Of a stretch of DNA of 64,000 nucleotides, positions 1 through 16,739 are shown one piece after another. The DNA is from Candidatus Omnitrophota bacterium (lineage in GTDB: Bacteria; Omnitrophota; Gorgyraeia; JAHIPI01). Within the stretch, counting starts at the first letter, position 1; each line of letters starts with the position of its first letter. The position numbers were made by a program, and so were the translations under genes. The stretch covers positions 1,552-65,551 of the forward strand of contig JAHIPI010000027.1 of the NCBI GenBank assembly GCA_018894435.1. The letters run 5' to 3'. The notes below the pieces were generated by a model. That model had not been told where the DNA came from and searched no databases. It saw only the letters and a program-made list of their open reading frames with translations.

Positions 1-3000
1 AGTCTCAGTTCCTGAAAGCTGCAATGAATTGTAAGTAGTGGTAGTAACATTGATGTTGCCTGCTGAGTTAGTAGCAGAGTATTTAACTGTAGAGGTGCCG
101 GGAGTTAAGGTGCCGCTAACAGTTAAGACTGTAGCAGTAGCGCCTGCATTGGCTAAGGTAAGCGTATAGCTTCCTGCTCCAAGATCTAAGATATCAGCCG
201 AACCAACTGTTCCATCGATCGTCAGCGTATCCACAGTCATTGAAGAAGCAAGAGTGAGTTTATTGTTAGTAGCCGGAGCTACAGTATCAGTCTTATTGAT
301 TGAGACTACGCCGATATTTTGTGGAGTGGCAGTTGAATCAGTATATGTAGCTGCGGTTGTGCCATCGAATGTCCAGGTGCCTGTGCCTTTGGTAACAGCT
401 CCTGCGGAAGCTATTGAGACATTGCCTGCGGTATTGACATTAGGATTATTGGTCAAAAGATTTAGGGTGCCATCAGTAATCGTCAGTGTCCCATTTACAT
501 CCAAAGCGCCTGATATAATCGCCTGGTCATAAGTCGCCTGGGTATTATTGAGCGTCAGGTTATAGAATGCCTGTCCGGCAGTAGTGATTGTCTGATGAGC
601 TGAAGCATTGCCGGTGAGAGTAACTGTGCTTGTGCCTGCAGTAAATGTTCCTGAGTTAGTCCAGTTGCCGCTTGCTGTAATAGGGGCGTATGAGCTTGTC
701 GCATCGAGGGTGCCATTTATTGTAATGTCTACGGCAGTAAGGCCATACTCTGTGCTAGTGGGTTTCACATCCAATGTGGCGTTAGAATTGATTGTTAAAT
801 TGCCTGTCATGGCATAGCTGCCTATAAGGTCGCCGGTCAGATTATATGTTGTAGCGCCTGTTGGAGTAAGTGTCAGGTTATTGTAAGCGACTCTTGCGAT
901 ATTAGTGGCTGTAGCAGTGCCGGTATAGATTACTGTAGAGCCTGTGCCTTTATTGAAGGTGCCTGTAGCTACAAGAGGAGTACCTGTGCCTGTGATGGTT
1001 AATATATATGAGGTTGTCCCAAGATTAAATGTTGTGCCGGTACCGATACTTAAAGAGGTTAGCTTTAAGTTACCTATCATCGTGGTAGTGCCTGTACCAC
1101 TAGTTACTACTACGCCTATGTCATTAGTAGTGGCGTTAGCATCTGATATATTCTGGGTAGCGCCGTCCAATGTGAGAGCCTGGCCGCCTGTGGCCTTGGT
1201 GAATGTGGAGCCATCCGCTATCGTGAAGTTACCTGATACATTAAGAGTCGAGGTGGCCTGAGTGAATGTGCCTGAATTAAGCGCGAAGGCTCCGTTAACG
1301 TCTACTGAGCCGGCCGCACCGCTTGTAAACGTCCCTCCCCCTATCGTTAACCCACCGTTAAAGGTCTGAAGGGCTGTTGAGGCCGAGTATGTGCCGCCGT
1401 TAATAGATGTAAGGCCTGTTACCGTGACGGTCATGGTGTTGGCATCGAAGATGCCAACTGAATTGATGAAGGCGCCTGTTACTGAAAGAGCATCCGCTAA
1501 CTGCAGCGTGCCGGCTCCGGAGTGAGTGAGGTTGTAGAAGGATGAATTCGTTGTACCGGAAGTTAACGTCTGGGTTCCGCTAGCTTTATTAAAAATAACC
1601 GTAGAATCATCGGCGATGAACTGTGACGGCGCTGTGCCTGTGCCGTAGTTAAGCCAGTTACCACCGACGGTGATGGTTGATGTGCGGCCAGCGCCAACGT
1701 TACGCGTGGCATCGAGTTTTCTTAAACCTGTCTCATCATTAAAACCAATTGTTAAATTTCCGCCAACCGTAAGGTTATAACCATCGGTTTTCCAGGTAAT
1801 TACGTTTCCAGCCGAATAAGCGGTTATAGATAAACTGTTTGTACCATTAAGCGTAACATTGCCTGTTTGAGTTATTGTTACGTTACCCCCTGTGACGATC
1901 CCACAATTATAGCCATTAGTTAGTGTGGGTATTGTAGCACTTGCAACAAAAGATAACATAGTAAGAGTAAGACTCGAGTTGACATCGAAACTGAGCGGAT
2001 TAGCCCCTTTGAGATATATCCATTTGCTACCTGTCAACGTACCGGAACCAATCGTCAATATCGACCCAATGGCAATATGGCTACCCAAAGTCGTCGTATT
2101 ACCGCTCTGTCCGGCGGTCAGGTTATTGAAGCCGTTAGCCGAATAACCTGATAAATTATTATACGTCAGCGTATTCACCCCATTCAGCACTAAGGTAGCA
2201 CTGTTGTATTGAGTAGATGCCACTGTCCCATCCGCTGTGAATGTGCCGTTGCCGTTAATGGTAATAGTTGATGAATTGGCGTTGAAGCGTGAGGTAATAG
2301 ATGACTGAACGAAGTTGCCGGCGAGCGTAATACCGTAAGAGTTGGCTAATGTAGTATCAAGTATCGCTCCTGCATCAATAGTCAGATTACCGGTTAAGGC
2401 ATTGCCAACTGTTAAGTTACCGGTCAAGTCATAAGTCTCAGTTCCCGAAAGTTGCAATGAATTGTAAGTAGTAGTGGTAACATTGATGTTGCCAGCTGAG
2501 TTAGTAGCAGAGTACTTGACTGTAGAGGTTCCGGGAGTTAAGGTACCACTTACTGTTAAGACTGTAGCAGTGGCGCCTGCATTGGCTAAGGTAAGTGTAT
2601 AGCCGCCAGCTCCTAAGTCCAGGGTATCAGCTGAACCGGCAGTGCCATCAATAGTTAAAGTATCTACTGTCATGGATGAGGCAAGAGTGAGCTTATTGTT
2701 TGTGGCTGGGGCTACTGTATCTGTCTTATTGATGGAGACTATTCCGATATTCTGAGGAGTAGCTGTTGAGTCTGTGTATGTAGCAACGGTGATGCCGTCA
2801 AAGGTAACTGCTCCGCCCTTGGTAAAGGTGGTGCCTAGATCCAGCTGGAAGTTGCCGGCATAGTTCTGGGTTTGACTGTTGGCATTAAATGTTCCTGACT
2901 GTAGCCTGAAGTTGCCATTCACATCCAAGGCATCTATTAATACCGCACTGCCAGCGGATTTATTGATGGTCAAGCCATAGAATGACTGACTATTCGATGT

Positions 3001-6000
3001 GATATTCTGGGTTCCTGTGCCGTTTAGAATAACCGTGGAGCTGCCGGGGGTGACGGTGGCGCGGGTAAAATCAACATTTCCGCCGATACTGACATTGCTC
3101 GTTGTGCCAAAATCGAAATAGCCGTAGGTATAACCGCTGCTGCCGTCCACATTAACATTGCCGGTAATGCTGTGCGTGCCGGTCTTAAACAGAATTTTTC
3201 CTCGATAGCCTTCCGGATAAGGAGCGTAACTTATTCCTAAATCCAGATTACCATTAACGGTTAGATTAAAGCCGTTTGTATCTAAAACTTGCGCTTCTGC
3301 TTCTGTATCAGCTAAGAAATCGCCGGCAATCCATAAAGTTCCGGTTGTCCAGTTGCCTGTCATTTGAATAGTCTTTGTATTAGCATACGCTATCTTGACC
3401 TGAACAGAAGTGCTAAATGCTTTTTGTGTTAAAGGGGTAGCGCTGGGTACAATGTCTATTCCACCGGTGGTTATACTCGAACCAGCGCCCATATCTAAAA
3501 AGTCATTCGCATTCGGATAAATAGCAATAGTACTCGCACCGGTCAAGACTGCGCTAGTTCCGAGAACAAGCTTCTTAGTGAAAACTCCGCCGGTTCTCGT
3601 GGAAGTAACACTGTTGCCAATTTGCAATACAGCAATAATATTGCCAGAATTTGGATTGGAGATATTCCCGTTTGCTCCCTGGATCCACGTACCTGTTGAT
3701 GTAAGGATACCCGAAGTATTGGCAATGCTGATATTGCCATTTACAGTTACGGTTTGGCCGCCATCGATCAGTGTGCCATCGGTAACAGTAATACCTGTGC
3801 ACGTTAACGCATCCACCAGCGTCCATCCGCCCGCGGCATTGCTTGAGTCAAATACGACAGTATTAAAAGTAGAGCCGCCGGTCGTAATAGTTTTTCCTAC
3901 TGCGCTAGCGGTAAAGGTAACTGTTTCGCTGGCGCCTTTGGTATATACACCTCTTGTCCCAGAATCCCAATTGCCGCCGACATTAATCGGCGTATTATTG
4001 ACTGAATTATTCAGGGTAATGGTTACGGCGCCGACCGTTGTATGGGTTATGGTAAGATTACCACCCACAGTAAGAGTGCCAATGCCTAAAACACCTGTAG
4101 CGGAGCCGGCATTGCTATTCGTTATGGTTAAATTGCCGCCGTAGGTTGTGGGGGTTATGGGCGCGGTTGTAGCGCCTTGTCCAATCAGATATTCAAATAA
4201 GCTCACAGAAATCGTGCCATTGTTGACAATGTTAGATGAGGCATTGCTAACATCTTTAGAAAACCTGCCCGCGCCGCTTAAGGTGCTTGCATTATTGATG
4301 GTTAAGGTGCCAGTCTGACCTACGTATAATCTCTTACCTGTCCCGATTTCCAGTTCTCCTGTAATATTCAGGGCATAAGAGGGATAGGCGGAAGTGCCTG
4401 TATTCCAGCTCACTTTGTTAATTCCGGAATTTATGGTTAATTTGTAGAATTTAACGTCCCAGTAACTCCCGCTTGTAGGAGTAGTAATGGTTTTGTTTCC
4501 CCCTGTGGCTGTCATAATTACTTCGCTTGTGCCATAAGTAAACGTCCCTGCCGAAGAATCCCAGTTGCCGCCGACATTAATTAGCGTGGCGCCGCTGCAG
4601 GTAAGCGTAACACCGGAGTTAATCGTGAGATTGCCTGAAACGCCGATAGTATAGACACCCACAGTATAGGTAGCGGCAGTGGTGGTCTTAGCTAATGTCA
4701 AAGCGCCGGCTGAAGTAACTGCCTGAAGCGTTGATGATACGCCTTCGCTGGTTAAGGTAATGTCACCGCTGGTAACTGTAGAAATCGTCCCTGAAGACTG
4801 GATGAGCGCTCCTGCGCCGGTATTAATCTGCAGCGCTCCGCTAGTGACTGTGAGGTTCCCGGCAATGGTGAGCGTATTGCCATTACTATTAATATATGCG
4901 CCGCCGGAGCCTGCAACTACGCCAGTGAGCGCTGTAGAAGGAGCAATATATAAATTCGCTACGTCTGTGCCTAATCCGCCAGTCGCGCCGCCGGCTGTCA
5001 ATTTAAGATTTGCTGCCTTGATAATATTGGAAGCGCCGCCGGAATGGGTGATGTTTCCTGCTGCTGCCGCTAGCGTTAGGTCGCCAAGAGTTTTATAAAG
5101 TAGGTTGTCGCCGGTATTTTCCAAAACTCCGCCATAAGTAGCTGTGTTGGAAACAATGGCTAATTCTTCAGTCGTGCCGGATTCAACCGCGGTCTTAATA
5201 TCCAAATTGCCCGAGGCTTTAGAAATGTGCGAAGCGCCAAGGGGCGTATTAGTTTCTACATAGACGCCTGTTGCAATTGGGATTGGCGTAGAGGCAGTGC
5301 CGACACTACCGGAGGTAGATTTTAGGACTATCGCGTCAGCGCTAAAGCTGGCTGAATTTGAAGTTATATTATTTGTTGCTGTAACATAGATAAAGTTGGC
5401 TCCGGAAAATGCGGAAATAGACCCCAGCGAAATATCATAACCCTTGATTGTTATATTGGAAGCCGTTGTGGTTGAAATTGTTCCGGAAGTATGGGTGAAA
5501 TTTCCTGAGCCATTGGCATCGTAATCAGCTTGGATAGCTATAGAGCTGCCGGTTGAGCTAACATTTGCCTGGATATCAATATCGCCATTGGAATAGAGAA
5601 AAATATTCCCTGATCTGGAGAACGCGCCTGTAACTGTTAATTCTACCGGCGCGCCGGCAGTATCGCCAGTAGCATAAATAGTAGTGGTAGCTCCTCCGGA
5701 TAAGCTGGCATTCTGGGTGGAGCCGCCGGTAGTAATAGTATTACCATTAATGATAAAGGTATTGGCGCCTTGCAGGGTTAGAGGGTTTCCCGTGCCGGCA
5801 GTTAAAGTCACTAAGCCTGCAGCGGTAAAAGTGAGGTTGCCTGAGCCATTGGCATTATAATCAGCTTGGATATAAAGGTAACTTTCGGTTGAGCCAACAT
5901 TAGCCTGGATATCAATATCACCTTTGGAAAAGAGATAAACTACCCCTGATTTGGAAATCGCGCCTGTAACTGTCAACTCTACCGGTGCGCCGGCAGTATC

Positions 6001-9000
6001 ACCAGTAGCATAAATGTTAAGGCTATTTCCTCCGGATAAGCTGGCATTCTGGGTTGAGCCAGCAGTAGTAATAGTATTGCCATTAACGCTAAAGGTATTG
6101 GCGCCTTGCAGATAATGAATGTTTGACGCGCCGGCAGTTAAAGTCACTGTAGCTGCAGCAGTAAAAGTGAGATTGCCTGAGCCATTGGCATCATAATCAG
6201 CTTGGATATAAAGGTAATTCCCTGTTGAGCCAACATCAGCCTGTATATCAATATCACCTCTGGACCAAAGAGTAACTATGCCGCTCTTAGAGATCGCTCC
6301 TGTGACTGTCAGCTCTACTGGCGCGCCGGCAGTATCGCCAGTAGTATAGATTTGTAAGCTATTTCCTCCGGATAAGCTGGCATTCTGGGTTGAGCCAGCA
6401 GTAGTAATAGTATTGCCATTGATGCTAAAGGTATTGGCGCCTTGCAGATAATGAGTGCTTGACGCGCCGGCGGTTAAAGTCACTGTAGCTGCGGCAGTAA
6501 AAGTGAGGTTGCCTGAGCCATTGGCATCTATATCAGCTTGGACATAAAGTGAGCTTCCCGTTGAGCTAACATTTGCTTGTATATCAATATCTCCTTTGGA
6601 ATAGAGATAAACTGTCCCTGATTTGGAGACCGCTCCTGTAACTGTCAGCTCTACTGGCGCGCCAACAGTATCGCCAGTGGCATAAATAGTAAGGCTATTT
6701 CCTCCGGATAAGCTGGCATTCTGGGTGGAGCCGCCGGTAGTAATAGTATTGCCATTAACGCTAAAGGTATTGGCGCCTTGCAGATAATGAAGGCTTGATG
6801 CGCCGGCAGTTAAAGTCACTGTAGCTGCGGCAGTAAAAGTGAGGTTGCCTGAGCCATTGGCATCATAATCAGCTTGGATATACAGGGTATCTCCCGTTGA
6901 GCCAACATCAGCCTGTATATCTATATCGCCATAGGCTCGAAGATTAACCGCGCCAGTCTTAGAGATCGCTCCTGTAACTGTTAATTCTACTGGCGCGCCG
7001 GCGGTATCGCCAGTAGCAGTAATGGTAAGGCCGCCACTTCCTCCGGATAAGCTGGCATTCTGGGTGGAGCCAGCAGTAGTAATAGTATTGCCATTAACGC
7101 TAAAGGTATTCGCGCCTTGCAGGACATGAGCGCTCGATGCTTCGGCAGTTAAAGTCACTATGCCGACAGCAGTAAAAGTGAGATTGCCTGAGCCGTTGGC
7201 ATCATAGTCAGCGTAGATACCTACAGAGCTGCCGGTTGCGCTAACATCAGCCTGTATATCAATATCACCTTTGGAAAAGAGATAAACTGCCCCCGATTTG
7301 GAAATTGTGCCTGTAACTGTCAACTCTATTGGTGCGCCGGCAGTATCGCCAGTAGCATAAATGTTAAGGCTATTTCCTCCGGATAAGCTGGCATTCTGGG
7401 TGGAGCCACCGGTAGTAATAGTATTACCATTAACGCTAAAGGTATTGGCGCCCCACAGTTTATGAACGCTTGATGCGCCGGCAGTTAAAGTCACTAAACC
7501 TGCAGCAGTAAAAGTGAGGTTGCCTGAGCCATTGAGATCGTAATCAGCTTGGATATAAAGGTAATTCCCTGTTGAGCCAACATCAGCCTTTATATCAATA
7601 TTTCCATTTGCCCATAATCTTATAAGGCCGGCGCAGGAAATCGTATCATTGACTGTAATGTCCCCGACTATAGCCGAAATAATTGATTTGTAAACACTTA
7701 ATGAGCCTGCAGAAGTAATCGCATCTAACGTGGCATTTGCCGCGTAGATGATGATGTTTGCTGTGCCGGTAGTGGTAATTTGTGTGGCAGAGCCCTGGAT
7801 AAACGAACCATTGCCATCACGGTCAGAATCCGCGTTAAAAGTAATCGTGCCGGAGGCGGAAACCGAGGCATTGACATATATATCATTAGTAGCGGTGAAG
7901 GTCAGCGCGCCGGCATAGGCAGTAATCGGAGAATCAATCCAGATATTTACCGGGTCAAAATCAAGGTGGCTGGCAGAATAGGTGCCGCCAATGTCAAGGC
8001 TGTCAGCCTTAAAGATAATCGTGCCGTAGTCAGGGTTGGCAGCCATAATTCCGCGGGCGTAAATTGTCCCATTTAATGCTTTTAATACTATATCGCCGGT
8101 GGGCGTAGATAAAGTGCCGTTTAAGAATAAATTTTGGGTGGTTGAGATGAGGGTGAGGTTGTTGCTGGAAATAGTTACACCCCTAGCGACATAGATAGAC
8201 CCATCTTGCGCTTCGAGGATAAGATTTGTGCTCTTTAAGTATTGAATTGCGAAATCGTCGCCGGGAGGACCCCTGACGGTTACGCCTTCGCCCATGATAG
8301 AAGATAAAGCTATTACTATATCTTCATTGGTTCTCACCACCTTGAGCGTGCCGGCTGCGGTTATTACGGGTTCCTCGCTATGACCGATATTGTTGCCTAT
8401 AAGGGTGAGTGTTGAGGCAGGTATTATGGCCTGTCCTGAATCTGTCACTCCACCATTTTGGGCCTCCAGGGTAAGAGACTTAAGCGAACAATAGGTCACT
8501 GCTCCGAAACCTTCAACCGGTCCGACAATCGTAACCTGGTCTCCTTCTAACTCTATAACTGCTACTATGTCAATGTCACTTATATTCCTATATATATGGG
8601 TGACATTCGCGTTCACTATGAAAGGCTCTTCAATACTGCCTATTTGAATTCCTATCAGCTTAACCATATCACCGGGAACTGCTGTATCCGATATGTTAGT
8701 AACTTTCCCGTTTGGCGCTTCCAGCGTAATACTGCCGGCAGTCGCATACCTTAATATATCACCGTGCTCTGTGGTCATGGTGGTTATGCCGGCATCTGAG
8801 GTTACTGTGTTAATCTCTATGTCGCCTGCTGTATGGATGTAATGGGGCAGGCCCGCTATCTGAATCGGTGCAACACGGCTTCCTATTAATATATGGCCCT
8901 CGGCCGCCTCCATATCGTACAGGGTAAGAAGAGGAGCATCGACCATCAGGTCGCCTTCAAGAACGGCCAGCTTTGTCCCTTCGATCTGCCTCACCTCGCC

Positions 9001-10305
9001 GCCGAACGCGGTAATATCGAGGTCGCCCGATGAAGAGACGTTAGCCACTGTCACGCTTCCGGTTCCGGAATAGGCAGTGGTGCCTGACCTTATGGTTATA
9101 TCCCCACCTCCCTGAGTAGATATGGCAGCATCGGCGAGTTGGGTGAAATCGCCTCCGTTTAGGTTATCATCATCTGCTATGAATACAAGGTCTGCCCCGT
9201 TTAATCCATATACATTGCCTGTAATATTGATATTGGCAGGCGTCGCTACGGTGAGGGACGCGGTTGCTTCCATTGTGCCTGCTAATGTAGTATCTAACAA
9301 TGAGCTATATGAGATGTTCGCGCCCGTAACTTCGGCGCTTGCCAGTTGTACTATTTCGCCTTTCGTCGCCTCTATAGTGATATCACCTGAGGCGTACATG
9401 GTACCGCTATTTTCTATATCGCCCTCAGGCGCCAGGAGCGCAATGGTTCCGTCCGCATTCTCCACGATCTTAGCGGCCAGTATCATGCCTTCGTTGTTAA
9501 CGGCATTAGCAAAGGCGTCTCTGGCAGCTGAGGCAGCAATAATGACTTTGCCTGAATCGGCCTGGATTGTCCCTGTATTTATTATGGCAGCTTCCTCATT
9601 GGTGGGGTTAGAGGTAACAGGTTCATCTATAGCCACCTGTATGAGGCGGTTATTTTCGAAACTGATGGTAACCTTGTTCCCGCTTGCCAGTGCCACCGTT
9701 CCCTGATCGGCCTGCAGCATCCCTTCATTTTTGATAGTCTGGGCTAAAAGGGCAATGAAGCCGCCATCGTTCACAGCTATTACTGCCTGGTTTACAATCT
9801 GGCCATCTTTGTTCAGTTTCTGGAAAACATATCTGCCGTTTCTGAAATCTTCTGTATCAATGTTCATTGTTGATGCAACAAGCGATCCAACATTGATGTT
9901 TGCGCTGGGGTCAAATACTATGCCGTTCGGGTTGACTATAAAGATATTGCCATTGGCATAAAGATAGCCAGCAATTACTGATTGCTGGCCGCCTATGACA
10001 TTGTTAAGGACGTTTGAGTTTGCTGATGTCTGATAATAATAGACGCTCTCGTTTGCTGTGATATTTAAAGACTGCCAATTTAAAACTGCATTATCTGAGG
10101 GCCTTACGGTTACACTATTGGGGATCGAATAATCGATTTCGGCTGTGCCTTCAACTACCTGGCATCCTTCAGGAAGTGCGTGTACTGTGTTTACGCTAAA
10201 TAATAAAAAAAGAGCAATCAAACCCGCAGCCCACATTATGCCGCTTGTGGCGCGTGTCTTTCTTGCCCTTATAATCTCGTTTTTACTGTGGCTTAACGTT
10301 CTCAT
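1..10305 (-). CDS. Giant TpsA / filamentous-haemagglutinin-like secreted repeat exoprotein; N-terminal signal peptide plus TPS (haemagglutination activity) domain; 3' end lies beyond the window start (at least 3435 codons in window)
   Basis: Reverse-complement translation from ATG at 10305 gives MRTLSHSKNEIIRARKTRATSGIMWAAGLIALFLLFSVNTVHA... then ...GNIFIVNPNGIVFDPSANINVGSLVAST (NPNGI hallmark of the TPS domain). No complete minus-strand ORF is listed for 1..10305, consistent with one open frame with no in-frame stop before the window edge. The plus-strand V/P-rich ORFs are antisense shadows. Confidence 0.8.
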   Translation of the reverse strand, partial: MRTLSHSKNEIIRARKTRATSGIMWAAGLIALFLLFSVNTVHALPEGCQVVEGTAEIDYSIPNSVTVRPSDNAVLNWQSLNITANESVYYYQTSANSNVLNNVIGGQQSVIAGYLYANGNIFIVNPNGIVFDPSANINVGSLVASTMNIDTEDFRNGRYVFQKLNKDGQIVNQAVIAVNDGGFIALLAQTIKNEGMLQADQGTVALASGNKVTISFENNRLIQVAIDEPVTSNPTNEEAAIINTGTIQADSGKVIIAASAARDAFANAVNNEGMILAAKIVENADGTIALLAPEGDIENSGTMYASGDITIEATKGEIVQLASAEVTGANISYSSLLDTTLAGTMEATASLTVATPANINITGNVYGLNGADLVFIADDDNLNGGDFTQLADAAISTQGGGDITIRSGTTAYSGTGSVTVANVSSSGDLDITAFGGEVRQIEGTKLAVLEGDLMVDAPLLTLYDMEAAEGHILIGSRVAPIQIAGLPHYIHTAGDIEINTVTSDAGITTMTTEHGDILRYATAGSITLEAPNGKVTNISDTAVPGDMVKLIGIQIGSIEEPFIVNANVTHIYRNISDIDIVAVIELEGDQVTIVGPVEGFGAVTYCSLKSLTLEAQNGGVTDSGQAIIPASTLTLIGNNIGHSEEPVITAAGTLKVVRTNEDIVIALSSIMGEGVTVRGPPGDDFAIQYLKSTNLILEAQDGSIYVARGVTISSNNLTLISTTQNLFLNGTLSTPTGDIVLKALNGTIYARGIMAANPDYGTIIFKADSLDIGGTYSASHLDFDPVNIWIDSPITAYAGALTFTATNDIYVNASVSASGTITFNADSDRDGNGSFIQGSATQITTTGTANIIIYAANATLDAITSAGSLSVYKSIISAIVGDITVNDTISCAGLIRLWANGNIDIKADVGSTGNYLYIQADYDLNGSGNLTFTAAGLVTLTAGASSVHKLWGANTFSVNGNTITTGGSTQNASLSGGNSLNIYATGDTAGAPIELTVTGTISKSGAVYLFSKGDIDIQADVSATGSSVGIYADYDANGSGNLTFTAVGIVTLTAEASSAHVLQGANTFSVNGNTITTAGSTQNASLSGGSGGLTITATGDTAGAPVELTVTGAISKTGAVNLRAYGDIDIQADVGSTGDTLYIQADYDANGSGNLTFTAAATVTLTAGASSLHYLQGANTFSVNGNTITTGGSTQNASLSGGNSLTIYATGDTVGAPVELTVTGAVSKSGTVYLYSKGDIDIQANVSSTGSSLYVQADIDANGSGNLTFTAAATVTLTAGASSTHYLQGANTFSINGNTITTAGSTQNASLSGGNSLQIYTTGDTAGAPVELTVTGAISKSGIVTLWSRGDIDIQADVGSTGNYLYIQADYDANGSGNLTFTAAATVTLTAGASNIHYLQGANTFSVNGNTITTAGSTQNASLSGGNSLNIYATGDTAGAPVELTVTGAISKSGVVYLFSKGDIDIQANVGSTESYLYIQADYNANGSGNLTFTAAGLVTLTAGTGNPLTLQGANTFIINGNTITTGGSTQNASLSGGATTTIYATGDTAGAPVELTVTGAFSRSGNIFLYSNGDIDIQANVSSTGSSIAIQADYDANGSGNFTHTSGTISTTTASNITIKGYDISLGSISAFSGANFIYVTATNNITSNSASFSADAIVLKSTSGSVGTASTPIPIATGVYVETNTPLGASHISKASGNLDIKTAVESGTTEELAIVSNTATYGGVLENTGDNLLYKTLGDLTLAAAAGNITHSGGASNIIKAANLKLTAGGATGGLGTDVANLYIAPSTALTGVVAGSGGAYINSNGNTLTIAGNLTVTSGALQINTGAGALIQSSGTISTVTSGDITLTSEGVSSTLQAVTSAGALTLAKTTTAATYTVGVYTIGVSGNLTINSGVTLTCSGATLINVGGNWDSSAGTFTYGTSEVIMTATGGNKTITTPTSGSYWDVKFYKLTINSGINKVSWNTGTSAYPSYALNITGELEIGTGKRLYVGQTGTLTINNASTLSGAGRFSKDVSNASSNIVNNGTISVSLFEYLIGQGATTAPITPTTYGGNLTITNSNAGSATGVLGIGTLTVGGNLTITHTTVGAVTITLNNSVNNTPINVGGNWDSGTRGVYTKGASETVTFTASAVGKTITTGGSTFNTVVFDSSNAAGGWTLVDALTCTGITVTDGTLIDGGQTVTVNGNISIANTSGILTSTGTWIQGANGNISNPNSGNIIAVLQIGNSVTSTRTGGVFTKKLVLGTSAVLTGASTIAIYPNANDFLDMGAGSSITTGGIDIVPSATPLTQKAFSTSVQVKIAYANTKTIQMTGNWTTGTLWIAGDFLADTEAEAQVLDTNGFNLTVNGNLDLGISYAPYPEGYRGKILFKTGTHSITGNVNVDGSSGYTYGYFDFGTTSNVSIGGNVDFTRATVTPGSSTVILNGTGTQNITSNSQSFYGLTINKSAGSAVLIDALDVNGNFRLQSGTFNANSQTQNYAGNFQLDLGTTFTKGGAVTFDGITVATYTDSTATPQNIGIVSINKTDTVAPATNNKLTLASSMTVDTLTIDGTAGSADTLDLGAGGYTLTLANAGATATVLTVSGTLTPGTSTVKYSATNSAGNINVTTTTYNSLQLSGTETYDLTGNLTVGNALTGNLTIDAGAILDTTLANSYGITLAGNFVQSSITSRFNANSSTITINGNGTFTADGTVASTQYNSATLVLNGVNTLTYNNLSGYSANGFNNLTAGQSGNTTTLGSHIAIGSILTIGSGTLTGSKWIYLKGANPLSFDVNSSLTLTMLSFVASATIPTLTNGYNCGIVTGGNVTITQTGNVTLNGTNSLSITAYSAGNVITWKTDGYNLTVGGNLTIGFNDETGLRKLDATRNVGAGRTSTITVGGNWLNYGTGTAPSQFIADDSTVIFNKASGTQTLTSGTTNSSFYNLTHSGAGTLQLADALSVTGAFINSVGIFDANTMTVTVTGLTSINGGTYSASTALQTFNGGLTIGGGTFTSGAAGSVDVNGAFALNSGTFTQATSTLNVSGNFTIADGSTFTKATGGQALTLDGATQNISDANATTNDIGVVVTSGTGTTTMIGNLKLTSLSIGTGTTFNLGTTSYILTITGTGTPLVATGTFNKGTGSTVIYTGTATATNIARVAYNNLTLTPTGATTYNLTGDLIGSYAMTGNLTINSNATLDVKPTSTEYGLTAVDITINGTLDATSSYAPITASGNWTNSGTFTAGTSTVTLTGNASAHQTITTAGQAFYNLTLNNTQATYDQAIISGALDVNGTLTITDGTLNLLTNNPNVNTAGNVSIASAGAVTKGTGTWTFDGTTAATYTDSTATPQNIGVVSINKTDTVAPATNNKLTLASSMTVDTLTIDGTVGSADILDLGAGSYTLTLANAGATATVLTVSGTLTPGTSTVKYSATNSAGNINVTTTTYNSLQLSGTET
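2440..2820 (-). repeat. Long-range intragenic duplication: 2440..2820 is about 88% identical to 1..380 (2.44-kb period), with weaker similarity continuing beyond
   Basis: Direct comparison of agtctcagttcctgaaagctgcaatgaattgtaagtag... at position 1 with agtctcagttcccgaaagttgcaatgaattgtaagtag... at position 2440. Confidence 0.75.
5505..7524 (-). repeat. Tandem array of 336-bp (112-aa) near-identical repeats inside the tpsA-like gene, about 6 full copies plus degenerate copies on both sides (roughly 5170..7860)
   Basis: The motif cctgagccattggcat recurs at 5505, 5841, 6177, 6513, 6849, 7188 and 7524; the period is 336 bp (one step of 339). A repeat translates on the minus strand as DANGSGNLTFTAAATVTLTAGASSTHYLQGANTFSINGNTITTAGSTQNASLSGGNSLQIYTTGDTAGAPVELTVTG... 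Confidence 0.8.
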
Positions 10306-10603: not shown

Positions 10604-10942
10604 TTATTTTTTCAGCCACTTTGTAATCTTAGGGTTCCGGCTCAGTTTGTCTATCTTCTTGTAAACTGTTACCGCCTCCTCATATCTTTTCTCAGCCAAA
10701 AGCGACTCTGCCTCATCATAAAGCGGCTTTATCTCAGAAAGTATACCTTGAAGTTTGTCTTGCGCTTGCTCCTCCCAAATCTTTTGCTCGATCTCCTTTA
10801 TGCGTACCTTCGCTTTCCTCGCCAGCTCATCTATGTTGTATCTGTAGAATTCGGCACGGGAGGTACTAGTAAATAGCAGAACAACTAATATGGTCATTGC
10901 GAGCGCCGCGAAGCGGCGCGTGGCAATCTCAAAGTTTTTCAT
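10604..10942 (-). CDS. Small secreted/periplasmic helical protein with a TPR-like segment
   Basis: 112 aa. N-terminal signal peptide (MKNFEIATRRFAALAMTILVVLLFTSTSRA). The motif LYDEAESLLAEKRYEEAVTVYKKI resembles the C-terminal repeats of the adjacent TpsB. Confidence 0.5.
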   Translation of the reverse strand: MKNFEIATRRFAALAMTILVVLLFTSTSRAEFYRYNIDELARKAKVRIKEIEQKIWEEQAQDKLQGILSEIKPLYDEAESLLAEKRYEEAVTVYKKIDKLSRNPKITKWLKK

Positions 10943-11219
10943 ATAGATCCGTAAATTTAGGATTCAAGCTGTTTATCAAATCTATCTTCTTCTTTCTAGA
11001 ACCAGCTTTAATCTGTTTTTCTCTTGCGATAGCCGTTTCAATATCGTCAAATACTTCATAATATACCAGCTTGTCAACATTGTATTTCTTGGTAAATCCC
11101 TCTACCATCTTATGCTTGTGTTCATACGCTCTCTTACGTAAATCGCTTGTAACGCCTGTGTAAATAACCGCATCCCCTTTGTTAGTCATTAAATAGACGT
11201 AGCCTTGCTTTTCATGCAT
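10929..11219 (-). CDS. GIY-YIG nuclease family protein (UPF0213-like, 96 aa)
   Basis: GYVYLMTNKGDAVIYTGVTSDLRKRAYEH matches the GIY-(x10)-YTG...R...EH core of GIY-YIG; the size is typical of the family. Confidence 0.8.
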   Translation of the reverse strand: MHEKQGYVYLMTNKGDAVIYTGVTSDLRKRAYEHKHKMVEGFTKKYNVDKLVYYEVFDDIETAIAREKQIKAGSRKKKIDLINSLNPKFTDLYEKL

Positions 11220-11231
11220 ATTTTATTTATT

Positions 11232-11270
11232 GAGATTGCTTCGTCCCGCCAAGGCGGGACTCGCAATGAC
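11232..11270. repeat. Family-C palindromic element (GTCATTGCG-NNN-CCCGCC-NNGG-CGGG-NN-GAAGCAATCTC), minus orientation
   Basis: Its reverse complement, gtcattgcgagtcccgccttggcgggacgaagcaatctc, is nearly identical to the plus-strand 39-mer at 33049..33088. Confidence 0.55.
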
Positions 11271-11280
11271 ACAGCCCCCC

Positions 11281-13482
11281 TTATCTCGCGAGCTCCAATG
11301 CCCTTTGATACGCTTCCCCGGCCTTTTCGAGGTCGCCTTCTTTATCGTACTTTTCTGCCTCTTCAAAGGCCTTGACCGCCGCCTCTTCTTCCGAATTTCC
11401 CGTGTGGCTCCAAGCCAGTTCAAGTACCTTCACATACGCCTCTTTTGCCTTTTTCCAATCTCCTTCTTTCTGGTATTTCACTGCCTGCTCAAACGTCATC
11501 TGCGCTTCTTCCTCTTTCTGGATAGTATCTTTTATCTCCACCTGAGTGCCGGTAATGACCTGGTCACGCAGCTCAACGACCTTGGCATACAGTTCCTTTG
11601 CCTCTTCGTAGCGGCCTTCCTGCTCCAGCGCCTGAGCCGTCTCAAACGAGTCTTTCATCTCCACTGACGGTGTTTCGTGCTTTACCTTCGTCAGTCTGTC
11701 TTCTATCCTCGTATACATCATCTCTTGTAAAAGCTGTTCATACTCGGCGAGTGACGGCTCCTCAAAGCTGAAATACATGTGCGCCTTGGGGCTTCTGCCG
11801 TAAGACGAGGCATCGCCGACAGGCCAGGCAACGTCATACCGAGCGGAGAGGCAATTCATAATATTTGCCCTTCCGCCAAAACCTACGCCTATGAAATTAT
11901 GGTTATGCCTTGGCGTCGGGCTGGGCTCTCGGTAGTGCGCAAAGCCCCAGTCGGCAAATATCGTGCCCTGCAGGACGCGCCTCGGATGTATACCCTCAAT
12001 GTGAAAACTGTCCGGAATAAAATAAAACGGATAACGTAATTCTATGCTCGCATTGTTGCCGTAATCGCCCAATGCGTCGCCTTCGCCGTAGCCCCTCACC
12101 GTATACATGCCGCCAATTCTATACTGCTCGGAACTTACAAGCGGATTATTTGACGCCTGTCCCGCCGCGCTCAAAAGAAGGTACGTTGAAAGAGGCATGG
12201 CGTTCATGCGAGAAATGGAGTAGGTATATTTAACAAATTTCCCGCCGCCTTTTTCTCTGGAGGAGTGTATGTCGTTCTCGTCCATAGAGTCCAGGAAATT
12301 AGGGAATGAAACGTTCAGCTCGTTTCTGAGCTGCGTCCTCCCGACGGCATCGCTCTCGTCAAGCGTAAAGGCGCCTTTCATAATCCGCAGTTTGTCGCGC
12401 GAATCCAAAACACCGCCTATGGTGGTCTTTGCCTCTTTTATGTCCATGCCACCGTCAATGGTGCCACCCAATGTGCCGGATTTGTAAGTAAGGTTAAAAA
12501 CGGGGTGCGACATAAAGGGCGATACCGTTCCCGACCAGCTTTTTATACCGTAATCCTGAAAATCACCGCCTATTCTCGATTTAAAGTAAGACGCGGAAAT
12601 CCCCAGCTTTGTACCGGATTCGTTAACGGGTATCGTGTAGTCTGCTATCCAGCCATAAAAATTGAATGTATCGGATCTCATGAAACGGCCGAAGAAGCGG
12701 TCGTCCCAGCCGAGGAGCGAGTTGTCTTCCAGTCCAAGGGTAAGACGCCAATTACCTGTCGTATTATTGCCGGTGTTATCAAAACTCAAAAAAGGATGCA
12801 CCGGCGGCCTGTCCTTTACTTTTATCATTACGTCGCTCGTGTCCGGAAGCGAGCCGCGGTAAAGTACGGCCCGCACAATTCTATCGGGGCTCTGGTTTAG
12901 ATACAAGAGGTCGTCTCTTAAGTCATTGTAATCTAAGATGTCGCCCCTATTGTTATTAATGCGTCTCTTTATTACGGACTCGTTTGAATTCTGAACGCCC
13001 TCTATATTGATATTGCCGTATTTGCCTTCAAGGACTTTTATGGTAACGGTATTGTCTGCGATCGTCTGCGGCGGGACATATGCCTGCGAGGTTATATAAC
13101 CTTCCGATGTGTAAAGAGCGCTTATCTTATTGGCCGCCTCTATAAGGTCGTTCAGTGACAATTCCCTGTTTTCGTAAGGTTGCGTGATCTCTTTAATACG
13201 CTTCTCGGGAAATACGGTATTGCCTTCTACGTTTATGTGCTCAATTAGGAATTTCTTTGTGGATTCGGCCTCGGGGACTGCTATTTTCTTTTCTTCGTCT
13301 TCTATGTTTACTTTTGGCTGGGGTTTGAAACCTTGGAAAGGTTTTTGCTTCAAGATAGCGCTGCCCTCTTTGCCCGCTGTAGGTATGGGTGGTTGAGCGC
13401 GCAACAAAGAAGCCGTGAAGATACAGACGGCTAAAAGTGCAAAAAATATGATTTTTCGTAACTCTTTTTCTTTATTAGGCAT
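11281..13482 (-). CDS. TpsB / ShlB-FhaC family outer-membrane transporter (POTRA domains plus beta-barrel) with a non-canonical C-terminal extension of about 155 aa containing three TPR-like repeats; the listed ORF extends to 13542 but the likely start is the Met at 13482
   Basis: POTRA-like FLIEHINVEGNTVFPEKRIKEITQ...VTIKVLEGKYGNINIEG. Barrel region ending ...KAHMYFSF. Then FETAQALEQEGRYEEAKELYAKVVEL / FEQAVKYQKEGDWKKAKEAYVKVLEL / FEEAEKYDKEGDLEKAGEAYQRALEL. Signal peptide MPNKEKELRKIIFFALLAVCIFTASLLRAQ follows the second Met. Confidence 0.8.
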   Translation of the reverse strand: MPNKEKELRKIIFFALLAVCIFTASLLRAQPPIPTAGKEGSAILKQKPFQGFKPQPKVNIEDEEKKIAVPEAESTKKFLIEHINVEGNTVFPEKRIKEITQPYENRELSLNDLIEAANKISALYTSEGYITSQAYVPPQTIADNTVTIKVLEGKYGNINIEGVQNSNESVIKRRINNNRGDILDYNDLRDDLLYLNQSPDRIVRAVLYRGSLPDTSDVMIKVKDRPPVHPFLSFDNTGNNTTGNWRLTLGLEDNSLLGWDDRFFGRFMRSDTFNFYGWIADYTIPVNESGTKLGISASYFKSRIGGDFQDYGIKSWSGTVSPFMSHPVFNLTYKSGTLGGTIDGGMDIKEAKTTIGGVLDSRDKLRIMKGAFTLDESDAVGRTQLRNELNVSFPNFLDSMDENDIHSSREKGGGKFVKYTYSISRMNAMPLSTYLLLSAAGQASNNPLVSSEQYRIGGMYTVRGYGEGDALGDYGNNASIELRYPFYFIPDSFHIEGIHPRRVLQGTIFADWGFAHYREPSPTPRHNHNFIGVGFGGRANIMNCLSARYDVAWPVGDASSYGRSPKAHMYFSFEEPSLAEYEQLLQEMMYTRIEDRLTKVKHETPSVEMKDSFETAQALEQEGRYEEAKELYAKVVELRDQVITGTQVEIKDTIQKEEEAQMTFEQAVKYQKEGDWKKAKEAYVKVLELAWSHTGNSEEEAAVKAFEEAEKYDKEGDLEKAGEAYQRALELAR

Positions 13483-13513
13483 ATGTGTATTTGCGCTAAT
13501 TATATTACTAACA

Positions 13514-13542
13514 ATAATACCTGATTTTTTGGGTTTAGTCAA
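13514..13542 (-). promoter_or_regulatory. Candidate sigma70 promoter for tpsB (TTGACT-17-TATTAT on the minus strand)
   Basis: Reverse complement of 13514..13542 is ttgact aaacccaaaaaatcagg tattat. It lies inside the first 20 codons of the longest ORF, which supports the downstream Met at 13482 as the true start. Confidence 0.4.
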
Positions 13543-13630: not shown

Positions 13631-14152
13631 TTAGACGTACCTTTTCATCAATTCTTGCCACTTTCCCTGGGCCTTCAGGATAATCTCTATGACTTCGCGC
13701 ACTGCGCCGCGTCCGCCCCCTTTTGAGGTTACATAATGGGCGGCTTCAAGGACTTCCGGTACGGCATTGGATACCGCTACGGCAAGACCGACTTTTCTCA
13801 AAACCGGCAGGTCCACAAGATCATCGCCGATGAAACAGACCTCTTCGGGAATGACTTTAAAATCGGACAATATCTCCCCGTATGCATCCGCCTTGCGTAC
13901 GGCATTCTGGTAGGATTTGTCTATATTGAGGGTTTTTGCTCTTTTTGCCACAATCTGTGACTTTTTGGCGGTAAGTATAGCGGTTTTAAGGCCGGCCCTT
14001 TTAAATAGCGACAGCCCCATGCCGTCAGTCACGTCAAAAAATTTGAGTTCATCTCCTGAATTTGTGTATATTATGCGGCCGTCTGTCAGGACGCCATCCA
14101 CGTCCATTACAAGTAGTTTGATCTTTTTAGCTTTTTCGTTTATCATCGTCAT
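13631..14152 (-). CDS. kdsC: 3-deoxy-D-manno-octulosonate 8-phosphate phosphatase (HAD-IIIA)
   Basis: LLVMDVDGVLTDGRIIY ... FIGDDLVDLPVLRKVGLAVAVSNA; 173 aa; lies in a kds operon. Confidence 0.85.
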   Translation of the reverse strand: MTMINEKAKKIKLLVMDVDGVLTDGRIIYTNSGDELKFFDVTDGMGLSLFKRAGLKTAILTAKKSQIVAKRAKTLNIDKSYQNAVRKADAYGEILSDFKVIPEEVCFIGDDLVDLPVLRKVGLAVAVSNAVPEVLEAAHYVTSKGGGRGAVREVIEIILKAQGKWQELMKRYV

Positions 14153-14154
14153 TT

Positions 14155-14182
14155 GGGGTCAGACCCTCGTTATGTAAACTAC
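14155..14182 (+). repeat. REP unit (family A) GGGGTCAGACCCTCGTTATGTAAACTAC; single arm
   Basis: Fills the kdsD-kdsC junction; its CTA supplies the TAG stop of kdsD. Confidence 0.8.
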
Positions 14183-15138
14183 ACCAGCCCCGCTTTCAGT
14201 AGATCCTGCACGTCCAGAAGCCCTGCGGGCCGGCCCTTGCGGTCAACCACCGGCATTTCGTCTATCTTTTTGGACTGTAATATCCGAAGGGCGTCAATTG
14301 CCATGGCCTCTTCCCCGATAGTTATAGGGTTCTTTGTCATTACCTCTTTTACGCGCTTACGCGTAATATCGCCTTTCGCCCTCACCTGGCGCCTCAGGTC
14401 GCCGTCGGTAAATATGCCTCGCAATACGCCGCTTTTATCAACAATGCTCGCTGAACCTGCGCGGGCGCGCGTTATCTTCAATAAAATTTCTCTCACCAGC
14501 TCGTCTTCACGCGCCACGGGATTAGCATCGCCCTTTCGCATTATGTCTTTCACCCTCAAAAGAAGCCGCTTGCCTAAATTGCCGCCGGGATGGTAGAGCG
14601 CAAAATGTTCTATTTTGAAACCTTTTTTCGCCTGCACCGCCACAGATAGCGCATCGCCCATCGCGAGCATAACGGTCGTGCTCGTAGTAGGAGCAAGCCC
14701 GAACGGGCACGCCTCTTTATTTATGCCGACATTCAGGACGCAGTCCGCGTTTCTCGCGAGCGTGGAAGACACATTGCCAACCATCGCAATAAGCGTGGCT
14801 CCTATCCGCTTTACAATCGGCAGTAAACTTATTATCTCCTCTGTCTCGCCGCTATTGGATATAGCTATAAGGCAGTCGTTCTTTGTAACTCTGCCAAGGT
14901 CGCCGTGCAGCGCCTCCGCGGGATGCAAATAAATGCTCGGCGTCCCCGTTGATGAGAAAGTCGCGGATATCTTCTGCGCTATAAATCCGGGTTTTCCCAT
15001 GCCGGTTACTATTACGTGGCCCTTTGTCTTCAGGACGATTTTTACCGCCTTCACAAAATTTGAATCTATCCTTTTTATGAGGTCTTGTATGGCTTTTGCT
15101 TCTATTTTCAGCACTTCTTTGGCTTTTTTTATCGACAT
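14179..15138 (-). CDS. kdsD: Arabinose-5-phosphate isomerase (SIS plus tandem CBS domains)
   Basis: GHVIVTGMGKPGFIAQKISATFSSTGTPSIYLHPAEALHGDLG; the C-terminal half has CBS-domain character. Confidence 0.85.
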   Translation of the reverse strand: MSIKKAKEVLKIEAKAIQDLIKRIDSNFVKAVKIVLKTKGHVIVTGMGKPGFIAQKISATFSSTGTPSIYLHPAEALHGDLGRVTKNDCLIAISNSGETEEIISLLPIVKRIGATLIAMVGNVSSTLARNADCVLNVGINKEACPFGLAPTTSTTVMLAMGDALSVAVQAKKGFKIEHFALYHPGGNLGKRLLLRVKDIMRKGDANPVAREDELVREILLKITRARAGSASIVDKSGVLRGIFTDGDLRRQVRAKGDITRKRVKEVMTKNPITIGEEAMAIDALRILQSKKIDEMPVVDRKGRPAGLLDVQDLLKAGLV

Positions 15139-15151
15139 AACCCCTCTTTAT

Positions 15152-15206
15152 GGGGTCAGACCCTCGTTATGTTAACTACGTAGTTTACATAATCAGGGTC
15201 TGACCC
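15152..15206. repeat. REPIN: inverted doublet of family-A REP units forming a palindrome of about 55 bp
   Basis: ggggtcagaccctcgttatgttaactac|gtagtttacataatcagggtctgaccc. Encodes the last codons (IRVRP) and the stop of kdsA. Confidence 0.85.
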
Positions 15207-16017
15207 TAATGACCTTCTCTATTTTTTTCATTTTTTCAAGTATCGCCGGCAATTCCGCCAAAGGCAGCATATTCGGGCCGTCGCATGGAGCCTTGTCCGG
15301 CGCTTCGTGTACCTCTACAAATATGCCGTCTACGCCAACCGAGATAGCCGCATAAATAAGCGGCTCTATAAAACGCCTCTCCCCGCCGCTTGCCGCCCCA
15401 AGTGAGCCCGGCAGCTGTACCGAATGGCTCGCATCATAAATAACCGGTACCCCGAACCCCCGCATTATCAAAATGGAGCGAAAATCACTCACAAGATTAT
15501 TGTATCCGAATATCGTGCCGCGTTCTGTGATTATTACTTTATTATTACCCGCGGAGGCGGCCTTTTCTATAGAGTGCTTCATGTCCCACGGAGAAAGGAA
15601 CTGCCCCTTCTTTATATTCACTATTCTTTTCGTCTTTGCCGCCGCTATTATAAGGCTGGTCTGCCTTGAAAGAAGCGCCGGTATCTGCAAAATATCGAGG
15701 ACCTCGCCCGCTCTTTTCGCCTCTTCTTCCGTATGCACGTCGCTCAGGATAAATACGCCGAGCGAGTCCTTCACCTTCTTCAGTATCTTAAGGCCTTTAT
15801 CTATGCCCGGCCCCCTGTAAGATTTAACTGATGTCCTGTTTGCCTTGTCATAACTCGATTTAAATATAAAAGGCACCTTCGCTTTATCGGTAATCTTCTT
15901 GAGCCGTTCAGCGTGGCGCATCGTGCTTTTTTCGTCTTCTATGACACACGGCCCGGCTATTAAAACAGCGGGATTGTTGCCGCCTATTTTTATTTTGCCC
16001 AAAGTAACTACGTTCAT
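15193..16017 (-). CDS. kdsA: 2-dehydro-3-deoxyphosphooctonate aldolase (KDO-8-P synthase)
   Basis: LIAGPCVIEDE...FKSSYDKANRTSVKSYRGPG. Confidence 0.9.
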   Translation of the reverse strand: MNVVTLGKIKIGGNNPAVLIAGPCVIEDEKSTMRHAERLKKITDKAKVPFIFKSSYDKANRTSVKSYRGPGIDKGLKILKKVKDSLGVFILSDVHTEEEAKRAGEVLDILQIPALLSRQTSLIIAAAKTKRIVNIKKGQFLSPWDMKHSIEKAASAGNNKVIITERGTIFGYNNLVSDFRSILIMRGFGVPVIYDASHSVQLPGSLGAASGGERRFIEPLIYAAISVGVDGIFVEVHEAPDKAPCDGPNMLPLAELPAILEKMKKIEKVIRVRP

Positions 16018-16739
16018 TTGGCACCCATAATAGTTCTCGCGCGTTCCAAATCTTCCGGGGTATCTATTCCTATAGTATCGAACTTCGTTTCTATAACCTT
16101 TATCTTATATCCCGATTCCAAAACGCGCAGCTGCTCAAGCCCCTCGGTCATCTCAAGATGCGATTTCGGGAGATTGGTAAACTGAAAGAGGAAATCCTTG
16201 GTATAGGCATATATCCCTATATGCTTATAGTACATTGGCGTCGTCTCATGCCTGCGGTAGGGTATAATCGAGCGCGAAAAATATAAAGCGAAGCCGTTTT
16301 TGTCCTTCACCACCTTGACTACGTTCGGATTTTCTATCTCGCTCTTATCCTCTATCTTCTTTGCCAGGGTGGCCATATAGACATCTTTATCGTCCAAAAT
16401 CGCTCTCGCCAGATCGTCTATCATCTCGGGCCGCACCATCGGCTCATCGCCCTGGATATTTATAATCACCTTAACGTCCAAAGGGTTTACCACTTCTATT
16501 AATCTGTCGCTCCCCGACGGCTGGTCCGGCGAAGTATATATGGCCTTTGCGCCAAAATCCGTCGCCGCTCTAAGCACCCTTTCATCGTCGGTCGCGATTA
16601 TAAGATCGTCCACCATCTTGGCTTTTTTAGCGCTCTCCCACACGTGCTGGACAACGGGTTTACCCAAAAGATCGGCAAGAACCTTGCCGGCGAACCTCGC
16701 CGAGCTGAATCTCGCCGGAATAACTCCTATTACATTCAT
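16014..16739 (-). CDS. kdsB: 3-deoxy-manno-octulosonate cytidylyltransferase (CMP-KDO synthetase)
   Basis: MNVIGVIPARFSSARFAGKVLADLLGKPVVQHV; 241 aa. Confidence 0.9.
   Translation of the reverse strand: MNVIGVIPARFSSARFAGKVLADLLGKPVVQHVWESAKKAKMVDDLIIATDDERVLRAATDFGAKAIYTSPDQPSGSDRLIEVVNPLDVKVIINIQGDEPMVRPEMIDDLARAILDDKDVYMATLAKKIEDKSEIENPNVVKVVKDKNGFALYFSRSIIPYRRHETTPMYYKHIGIYAYTKDFLFQFTNLPKSHLEMTEGLEQLRVLESGYKIKVIETKFDTIGIDTPEDLERARTIMGAK

Follow-up and report, generated by a model that had tools for sequence, protein, structure and literature searches.

A two-partner secretion transporter of Omnitrophota with a helical tail behind its last barrel strand and a small partner protein

Introduction

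The TpsB transporters of two-partner (type Vb) secretion (TPS), of which FhaC, CdiB and ShlB are described examples, carry two ShlB-type POTRA domains, a 16-strand Omp85 barrel and a VRGY motif in loop 6, and are encoded in an operon with a TpsA protein that contains a TPS domain. The TPS domain is what the POTRA domains of TpsB recognise. A TpsB ends typically, though not by strict definition, at strand 16 with a terminal aromatic residue. The present analysis concerns a tpsB gene of a Candidatus Omnitrophota bacterium whose product shares the POTRA domains, the barrel, the loop-6 motif and the operon with these systems. Unlike FhaC, CdiB and ShlB, it carries 159 helical residues of the tetratricopeptide repeat (TPR) type past strand 16, its operon includes an extra gene for a small periplasmic protein, and an H1 plug helix is not confidently modelled. 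The stretch of DNA analysed, hereafter the window, comprises 64,000 nucleotides of contig JAHIPI010000027.1; residue numbers refer to the 733-residue TpsB. Judged from the sequences, the tail and the small partner are a lineage-specific, phylum-wide two-gene module.

Several outer-membrane machines work with periplasmic TPR proteins. BamA is an Omp85 barrel that operates with BamD docked beneath it. In the exopolysaccharide exporters BcsC, PgaA, PelB and AlgK-AlgE, periplasmic TPR regions, joined to or paired with an outer-membrane barrel, are scaffolds below the pore. PilF and PilW, likewise small TPR proteins of the periplasm, each serve a single outer-membrane machine. BcsC is described in PMC11379886. 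TPS loci with an accessory third gene are also described, namely those with BcpO of Burkholderia (PMC5422565) and the glycosyltransferase HMW1C (PMC3983070).

In the 2014 survey of the Omp85/TpsB superfamily the barrel end is taken as the protein end, and variation is described only at the N-terminus (PMC4104836). According to the 2017 review of TPS systems, only a very small number of them have been examined for periplasmic handling; it mentions no TPR component (PMC5422565). No description of a TpsB or Omp85 protein with this TPR or C-terminal extension was found in the literature searched, and among the papers naming both "TpsB" and "tetratricopeptide" no title or abstract describes the architecture. 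The papers on giant genes and proteins of Omnitrophota that were checked do not mention type V secretion. Within this literature, the tailed TpsB and its partner are apparently a conserved, undescribed variant of a known machine.

Results

An ShlB-type transporter with a complete barrel

The tpsB gene lies on the minus strand (11281..13482) and encodes 733 residues from the ATG at 13482. Its open reading frame (11281..13542, minus) would yield 753 residues from the in-frame TTG at 13542. The ATG is the likely start, because it matches both the N-termini of the homologues and the NCBI call for P0001, a protein from a Candidatus Omnitrophica metagenome-assembled genome (MAG) that is 100% identical to the window TpsB. 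A promoter-like site (13542-13514) is located just 5' of this ATG. Other proteins and loci compared are designated by P and L numbers, respectively.

The protein contains an ShlB-type POTRA domain (13024..13251, minus; Pfam POTRA_2, PF08479, E 4.7e-25) and an ShlB barrel domain (11881..12840, minus; PF03865, E 3.5e-24). The latter includes GGMYTVRGY, that is, the conserved loop-6 (V/I)RG(Y/F) motif, with G457, G458, T461, R463, G464 and Y465 as invariant columns of the homologue alignment. An AlphaFold2 model built on a 103-sequence alignment has a mean predicted local distance difference test (pLDDT) of 89.3 and a predicted template modelling score of 0.77. In this model, DSSP assigns two POTRA-like beta-alpha-alpha-beta-beta units followed by 16 barrel strands, and the best Foldseek matches are CdiB (6wim, E 2e-32) and FhaC (4ql0 and 4qky, range to 1e-25). 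The N-terminal residues 20-59, where an FhaC-type H1 would lie, have a pLDDT below 50 and form one 10-residue helix (36-45).

The giant substrate gene tpsA (1..10305, minus) encodes at least 3435 residues, with a signal peptide and a TPS secretion domain (PF05860, E 5.6e-35); it starts at 10305, has no stop and leaves the window. Since the giant protein has a TPS domain, the locus is a two-partner (type Vb) secretion operon with the order tpsB, small partner and giant tpsA, and TpsB is predicted to translocate TpsA. Of the features tested, the POTRA_2 domain, the 16-strand ShlB barrel, the VRGY loop and the cognate TPS-domain partner are all present. The protein departs from a typical TpsB only in not ending at strand 16.

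The tail behind strand 16

The sixteenth and last barrel strand, KAHMYFSFE (11761..11787, minus; residues 566-574 by DSSP on the model), is beta-signal-like and is now internal. The tail-less homologues stop exactly opposite ...KAHMYFSFEE in the alignment, and 90 of the 103 aligned homologues end within 10 residues of the barrel end. An earlier note on this DNA had placed the barrel end at KAHMYFSF, and both the homologues and the model agree. The same note had allowed that the true barrel terminus might be at the very C-terminus; the model shows only helices past strand 16, which argues against this. Instead of a terminal aromatic residue, 159 further residues follow the strand. The stretch singled out in that note, 11281-11750, is the 3' end of tpsB.

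This tail (11284..11760, minus) has a net charge of about -17, with 40 D+E and 23 K+R in 160 residues. In the whole-protein model it forms six helices (578-603, 606-621, 625-672, 676-691, 697-715 and 718-732) with a pLDDT of 74-96. The first helix, LAEYEQLLQEMMYTRIEDRLTKVKHE (11674..11751, minus; residues 578-603), is 26 residues long and comes after an invariant E-P. Its region is the most conserved part of the tail, with E1, P2, E8, M14, R18 and I19 invariant, and relatives with short tails of 15-22 residues keep the tail start only.

Three TPR-type hairpins follow. The first, FETAQALEQEGRYEEAKELYAKVVEL (11569..11646, minus), covers positions 6-31 of Pfam TPR_2 and is also found in the unit alignment. 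The second, FEQAVKYQKEGDWKKAKEAYVKVLEL (11416..11493, minus), is defined by the model, the unit alignment and a profile search of the Protein Data Bank (PDB). The third, FEEAEKYDKEGDLEKAGEAYQRALEL (11290..11367, minus), is present only in the closest relatives, P0001-P0005. The units, which are conserved in homologues, share 50-65% pairwise identity as read from the sequence. Their helix pairs are 606-621/625-..., ...-672/676-691 and 697-715/718-732, so that helix B of the first hairpin and helix A of the second are one 48-residue helix in the model.

The TPR signature is a degenerate 34-residue pattern with small residues at positions 8, 20 and 27 and large hydrophobic residues at 4, 7, 11 and 24. 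The tail conforms to it: Pfam TPR_2, TPR_1 and TPR_8 exceed their gathering scores in the last 120 residues of TpsB, and the tail alone matches TPR_1, TPR_2 and TPR_8 at E 5e-11 to 3e-10. The tail profile also aligns to consensus TPR proteins in the PDB, where units 2 and 3 fall on two consecutive repeats with a 7-residue insert. In Foldseek the consensus TPRs rank first, though weakly; with NCBIfam the tail gives a weak match to PilW (E 7.9e-4). The earlier description of three repeats of about 34 residues therefore stands as to the three TPR-type units. The units, however, are not contiguous 34-mers: each hairpin has 26-33 residues, successive hairpins start 51 and 42 residues apart, and a conserved helix of 26 residues precedes them. 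The signature and the hairpin structure are both present, and the tail may or may not pack into the canonical right-handed superhelix that three or more contiguous repeats form.

Modelled on its own, the tail reaches a pLDDT of only 71.9, with low confidence and a TM score of 0.2 against consensus TPR structures. The higher values within the whole protein are consistent with packing of the tail on the rest of TpsB, which the two models suggest. With 16 strands and periplasmic POTRA domains, the topology implies that the tail should emerge on the periplasmic side.

The small partner protein

The small partner gene (10604..10942, minus) encodes 112 residues, consisting of a signal peptide, a mature N-terminus beginning EFYRYNIDELARKAKVRIKEIEQKI and one TPR-type hairpin (LYDEAESLLAEKRYEEAVTVYKKI). 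The mature protein has 82 residues, a net charge of +3 and no charged extension. Its family (at least 20 clusters; 22 members) is characterised by a signal peptide, an invariant mature N-terminus (cleavage between A and EFYRYNIDELARKAKVRIKEIEKKI) and one TPR-type hairpin. The likeness of this protein to the tail, noticed earlier as a shared motif, is confirmed at three levels. In BLASTP of the pair, 16 of 38 residues of the hairpin are identical to the TpsB tail (E 9e-5). The family matches the profile of the tail units with an hhalign probability of 95.9% (E 5e-9). Over all six-frame open reading frames of the window, the partner hidden Markov model matches its own gene and the TpsB tail only. 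Among PDB entries, the partner profile finds the TPR proteins DNAJC3 (E 2e-5) and PilF (E 2.6e-4).

The partner has no significant sequence relationship to BamD (NCBIfam TIGR03302; E 0.012, 15.1 bits against a cut-off of 81.4). It has no lipobox (cleavage between SRA and EF) and one hairpin only, and so falls outside the BamD-like TPR lipoproteins. Pfam finds no TPS domain in it. By their sequences, the signal peptides of the family look like substrates of signal peptidase I and not like those of lipoproteins. A lipoprotein assignment through the Cys of ...FCEFY in some homologues was rejected, as this position is Ala in most members of the family and none has a canonical lipobox. Twin-arginine export (TRRFAAL) was also rejected: the RR pair is missing in other members, and the stretch is encoded by an inverted repeat of the GIY-YIG cassette described below. 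A charge complementarity between tail (-17) and partner (+3) was dropped as weak and inconsistent across homologues.

The family varies greatly in length, from 105 to 615 residues in the clade of the window and from 85 to 746 overall. The long members add a repetitive, low-complexity extension rich in K/A/E/R(Q), of about 150-650 residues, after the conserved N-terminal domain. Extended partners are encoded in L004 (8085-9179, 364 residues), L012 (4596-6443, 615 residues), L014 (8645-9583, 312 residues) and L016 (8193-10433, 746 residues). These extensions recall TolA domain II or single alpha-helix domains.

The small protein is a conserved member of the operon. The order TpsB, partner, TpsA is found wherever a downstream TpsA is on the contig, namely in the window, L003, L004, L005 and L013. 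In L001/L002 and L012 the partner follows TpsB, but these contigs carry no TpsA: that of L001 continues with a transposase before it ends, and those of L002 and L012 end soon after the partner gene. In L003, L004 and L013, tpsB and the partner gene overlap at the stop of the former and the start of the latter. On the other hand, no partner gene is present beside three tail-less Omnitrophota TpsBs (L009-L011), nor at L008, whose protein P0010 has a 59-residue K/R/E-rich tail with no TPR units. The co-occurrence of tail and partner rests on about 14 loci. The architecture itself, with a complete barrel, a six-helix tail, three hairpins and the partner, is regarded as highly probable.

Distribution in the phylum

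The earlier note had called for a survey of TpsB homologues, and this shows that the extension recurs. When the tail, together with the 75 barrel residues before it, was compared with 1.84 billion representative proteins, about 11 representatives covered both the barrel end and the tail, including a distant group at 26-28% identity. A member of this group, P0261, as query gives 192 matches at E <=1e-30, and all the named ones are Omnitrophota. In total, a homologous tail is found in at least 100 clusters of Omnitrophota ShlB-type proteins, in two clades: A, which includes the window, and B (P0261, P0263 and P0291-P0410; ShlB-type proteins of about 700 residues). Among the matches listed of the 192, the tail is present in 92 of 120 clade-B proteins. 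In public databases the proteins are annotated as "ShlB/FhaC/HecB family", "BamA/TamA family" or "hypothetical".

Between the two clades, the tails are homologous from the first helix through unit 1 and the long helix to unit 2 (hhalign probability 97.9%, E 4e-13, 117 columns). Where the window protein has its third TPR unit, the clade-B tail closes with K-P-L-x-Φ-E-F, a strongly conserved motif that resembles a beta-signal or a terminal strand. Tails fall into length classes of none, 15-22, 59-76, about 117-135 and 156-158 residues. A rough neighbour-joining tree with no support values was used solely for the distinctness of A and B and for the position of the tail-less members, which nest inside clade B; this nesting suggests repeated loss of the tail.

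In the longer TpsBs checked outside the tailed clades, the extra length is N-terminal or internal and the protein still ends in ...QF/F, with the exception of one that has an unrelated 46-residue extension. A search of a genome collection with the single protein gave one true relative (L005) and two unrelated TPR matches (L006, L007). When metagenomes were scanned with the alignment of the small protein, nothing came up beyond a fragment of the window itself and a copy of L003. In another Omnitrophota MAG (L009, 5001-8495), a protein of more than 2100 residues is followed by two TpsBs in tandem, both tail-less and 572 residues long, and a Y1 transposase adjoins them.

The module in clade B

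In the three clade-B loci L014-L016, a homologue of the partner with a signal peptide is encoded downstream of the barrel gene, directly in L015 and L016 and one gene further in L014. The clade-B partner matches the small protein of the window in N-terminal motif as well as hairpin (hhalign probability 95.6%, E 1.2e-8, 72 columns). Long charged extensions are found in two of the three. In these loci, the flanking 6 kb on each side of the transporter gene contain no TPS-domain gene.

As both clades have the partner next to tailed barrels, the conserved unit is a tailed ShlB-type barrel plus a small partner. In the clade of the window, this unit is embedded in a TPS operon. Clade B keeps the tail and the partner without an adjacent TpsA, and the module is therefore tied to the transporter and not to this giant TpsA.

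Among the neighbours in clade B, a DUF553 transglutaminase-like gene is beside the pair in two of the three loci, and carbamoyl-phosphate synthase genes are also present. Directly upstream of the barrel gene of L014 (2568-5770) are three genes with prepilin-type N-termini (133, 139 and 798 residues; e.g. ...SLTLIELLITISI...).

Gene order and neighbouring features in the window

On the minus strand, the order is presumed genes for the biosynthesis of 3-deoxy-D-manno-octulosonic acid (KDO; 16739..13631), tpsB, a 96-residue GIY-YIG gene, the 112-residue signal-peptide gene and the giant tpsA. The small gene had been described as adjacent to tpsB, which is not the case, as the GIY-YIG gene (11219..10929, minus; Pfam GIY-YIG, E 1.9e-16) is located between them. 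On either side it has one copy of an imperfect inverted repeat of about 40 bp (10893-10932 and 11230-11270; GTCATTGCGAG...GCAATCTC), and it therefore resembles a small mobile cassette (10893..11270). The cassette is probably not part of the secretion module. The repeat at 10893-10932 codes for the start and the n-region of the signal peptide of the small protein (MKNFEIATRRFAALAMT).

The same junction in L005 (4938-5228) also holds a GIY-YIG gene, and in L001 (8223-8579) and L002 (4154-4510) it holds another small gene, of the bAvd / 23S_rRNA_IVP family (118 residues). In L013 (4642-5004) the junction is without an insert; the partner nevertheless begins MKNLKIAARRFAALAMT, possibly the remnant of a single repeat. 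The tpsB/partner junction seems to be a hot spot of small selfish inserts.

The tpsA gene contains a tandem array at 5504-7601, with a period of 336 nt (112 residues), 6.2 copies and 83% matches. It also contains a dispersed 300-nt duplication (1-300 and 2434-2733, 85% identity).

The four open reading frames directly upstream of tpsB (13631-16739, minus) are presumed to be KDO genes solely by size and order. Their size and order match those of the genes upstream of tpsB in L001, L002 and L013, where Pfam identifies CTP_transf_3, DAHP_synth_1, SIS+CBS and Hydrolase_3. Presumably they are kdsB, kdsA, kpsF/kdsD and kdsC. If the assignment is correct, they agree with an outer membrane that contains lipopolysaccharide.

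Discussion

Comparison with known machines

The arrangement found here recalls that of BamA and BamD, in which an Omp85 barrel works with a TPR protein beneath it. BamD, however, is a separate lipoprotein of five TPRs that binds POTRA5, whereas in Omnitrophota the module is fused to the barrel C-terminus and the free partner, which lacks a lipobox, contains only one hairpin. The exporters of the BcsC/PgaA type also join periplasmic TPRs to a barrel, but their TPR array is N-terminal, long and contiguous, the barrel is not of the Omp85 kind and the cargo is a polysaccharide. The tailed TpsB has the opposite order, behind an ShlB-type barrel. Like BcpO and HMW1C, the partner is the product of an additional gene in a TPS operon, which in those cases is needed for or associated with TpsA function. 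BcpO is, in contrast, lipoprotein or cytoplasmic and HMW1C is a cytoplasmic glycosyltransferase, and neither is TPR-like or echoes a domain of its transporter. The similarity to PilF and PilW is generic to TPR; these two are multi-repeat lipoproteins that act on secretins.

Proposed function

The module is most likely a periplasmic accessory platform. The tail would leave strand 16 on the periplasmic face, by the seam of strands 1 and 16 and POTRA2, and the single hairpin of the partner probably stacks onto the hairpins of the tail. Tail and partner would then form a fixed platform under the pore, roughly as BamD does for BamA. In the window, unfolded TpsA (at least 3435 residues) arriving from Sec would thus meet a larger receiving surface in the periplasm. 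The platform would help to pass TpsA on to POTRA domains and pore, or would attract a general chaperone of the periplasm. The explanation as a whole, an Omnitrophota lineage of ShlB/FhaC-type transporters in which a helical domain after strand 16 and a partner serve as a periplasmic platform, is put forward tentatively, at a little under an even chance. The platform or handover function is the more doubtful part of it.

Four observations weigh against this proposal. The lack of TPS-domain genes near the clade-B transporters speaks against it if the platform is specific for a substrate, and the earlier suggestion that the module chaperones or docks the giant TpsA is, as it stands, not supported in view of these three loci. 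The tail appears to have been lost or truncated repeatedly within clade B, so that the module would be dispensable for at least some relatives. The hairpins are parted by inserts of 25 and 16 residues, so that a classical peptide-binding TPR groove may not form. Lastly, a partner of 85-746 residues is unlike a simple, fixed docking subunit.

Alternative explanations

In a different role, somewhat unlikely in our estimate, tail and partner would not handle the substrate but tether or space the transporter within the envelope, linking it to peptidoglycan, the inner membrane or another envelope structure in the manner of TolA domain II or OmpA-type periplasmic domains. The long charged extensions (here put at roughly 260-650 residues) of the partners of L004, L012, L014 and L016 would suit this role, as would the K/R/E-rich tail that P0010 has in place of TPR units and the existence of the clade-B module without an adjacent TpsA. 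The window partner, however, with its 82 mature residues, has no such extension, and a range from none to about 650 residues argues against a spacer of fixed distance. Scans with Pfam and NCBIfam find no peptidoglycan-binding or membrane-anchor motif in either protein, and the signal peptides look like those cleaved by signal peptidase I, not like those of lipoproteins.

The position of the tail, which hangs from strand 16 at the lateral seam of the Omp85 barrel, suggests in turn a gate or plug. The first tail helix would occupy or cap the pore like H1 of FhaC, or the terminal strand of clade B would pair with strand 1, so that the channel stays closed until the substrate or the partner arrives; in clade A, the N-terminal EFYRYNI of the partner might take the role of the terminal strand. 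The N-terminal region of a presumptive H1, with its 10-residue helix and pLDDT below 50, is counted in favour of this. The first helix, at 26 residues, has about the length needed to span the barrel, the tail start is the most conserved part and the sole one kept in tails of 15-22 residues, and K-P-L-x-Φ-E-F is strongly conserved in clade B. A helix entering the lumen has, however, no structural support, and an H1 modelled with low confidence need not be an absent H1. In addition, the window protein lacks the terminal strand, and the correspondence of EFYRYNI with it is speculative, with no statistical support. A gate or plug is, on balance, unlikely. Slightly less likely again is its most developed form, a lateral-gate control specific to Omnitrophota in which a self-inhibited Omp85 has its first helix capping or entering the pore and a tethered, beta-signal-like strand (K-P-L-x-Φ-E-F in clade B, possibly EFYRYNI of the partner in clade A) paired with strand 1, until the substrate opens it. 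If this were true, the beta-signal mimicry of BamA inhibitors would have a natural counterpart within one molecule.

It is improbable that the transporter exports the small protein as a second cargo and does not have it as a partner. Its signal peptide and invariant mature N-terminus, a possible recognition motif, would allow it, and in clade B, with no TpsA nearby, its gene is the one most tightly linked to the barrel. The protein has no TPS domain, though, and its TPR hairpin matches the transporter's own tail, so that assembly with the tail fits better than export. Finally, an artefact, with a frameshift or misassembly fusing a TPR gene to tpsB or E/K-rich low complexity mimicking TPR, has only the compositional bias of the tail in its favour and is effectively refuted by homologues with the same uninterrupted architecture in many independent assemblies (NCBI, JGI, ENA, Logan), by the conservation of the TPR-signature positions and by the confident AlphaFold2 model of the whole protein.

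Significance

What is chiefly added to the earlier observation is the finding that tail and partner, one fused and one free, make up a conserved module. Omnitrophota are ultra-small bacteria, possibly predatory or host-dependent, and are known for giant surface proteins. How a very large TpsA is kept competent for secretion in the periplasm is poorly understood, and so is the gating of Omp85 proteins without an energy source. A transporter that carries its own helical domain on strand 16 and comes with a dedicated partner offers a two-gene handle on both questions, and it extends the domain diversity of the Omp85 superfamily beyond the N-terminus.

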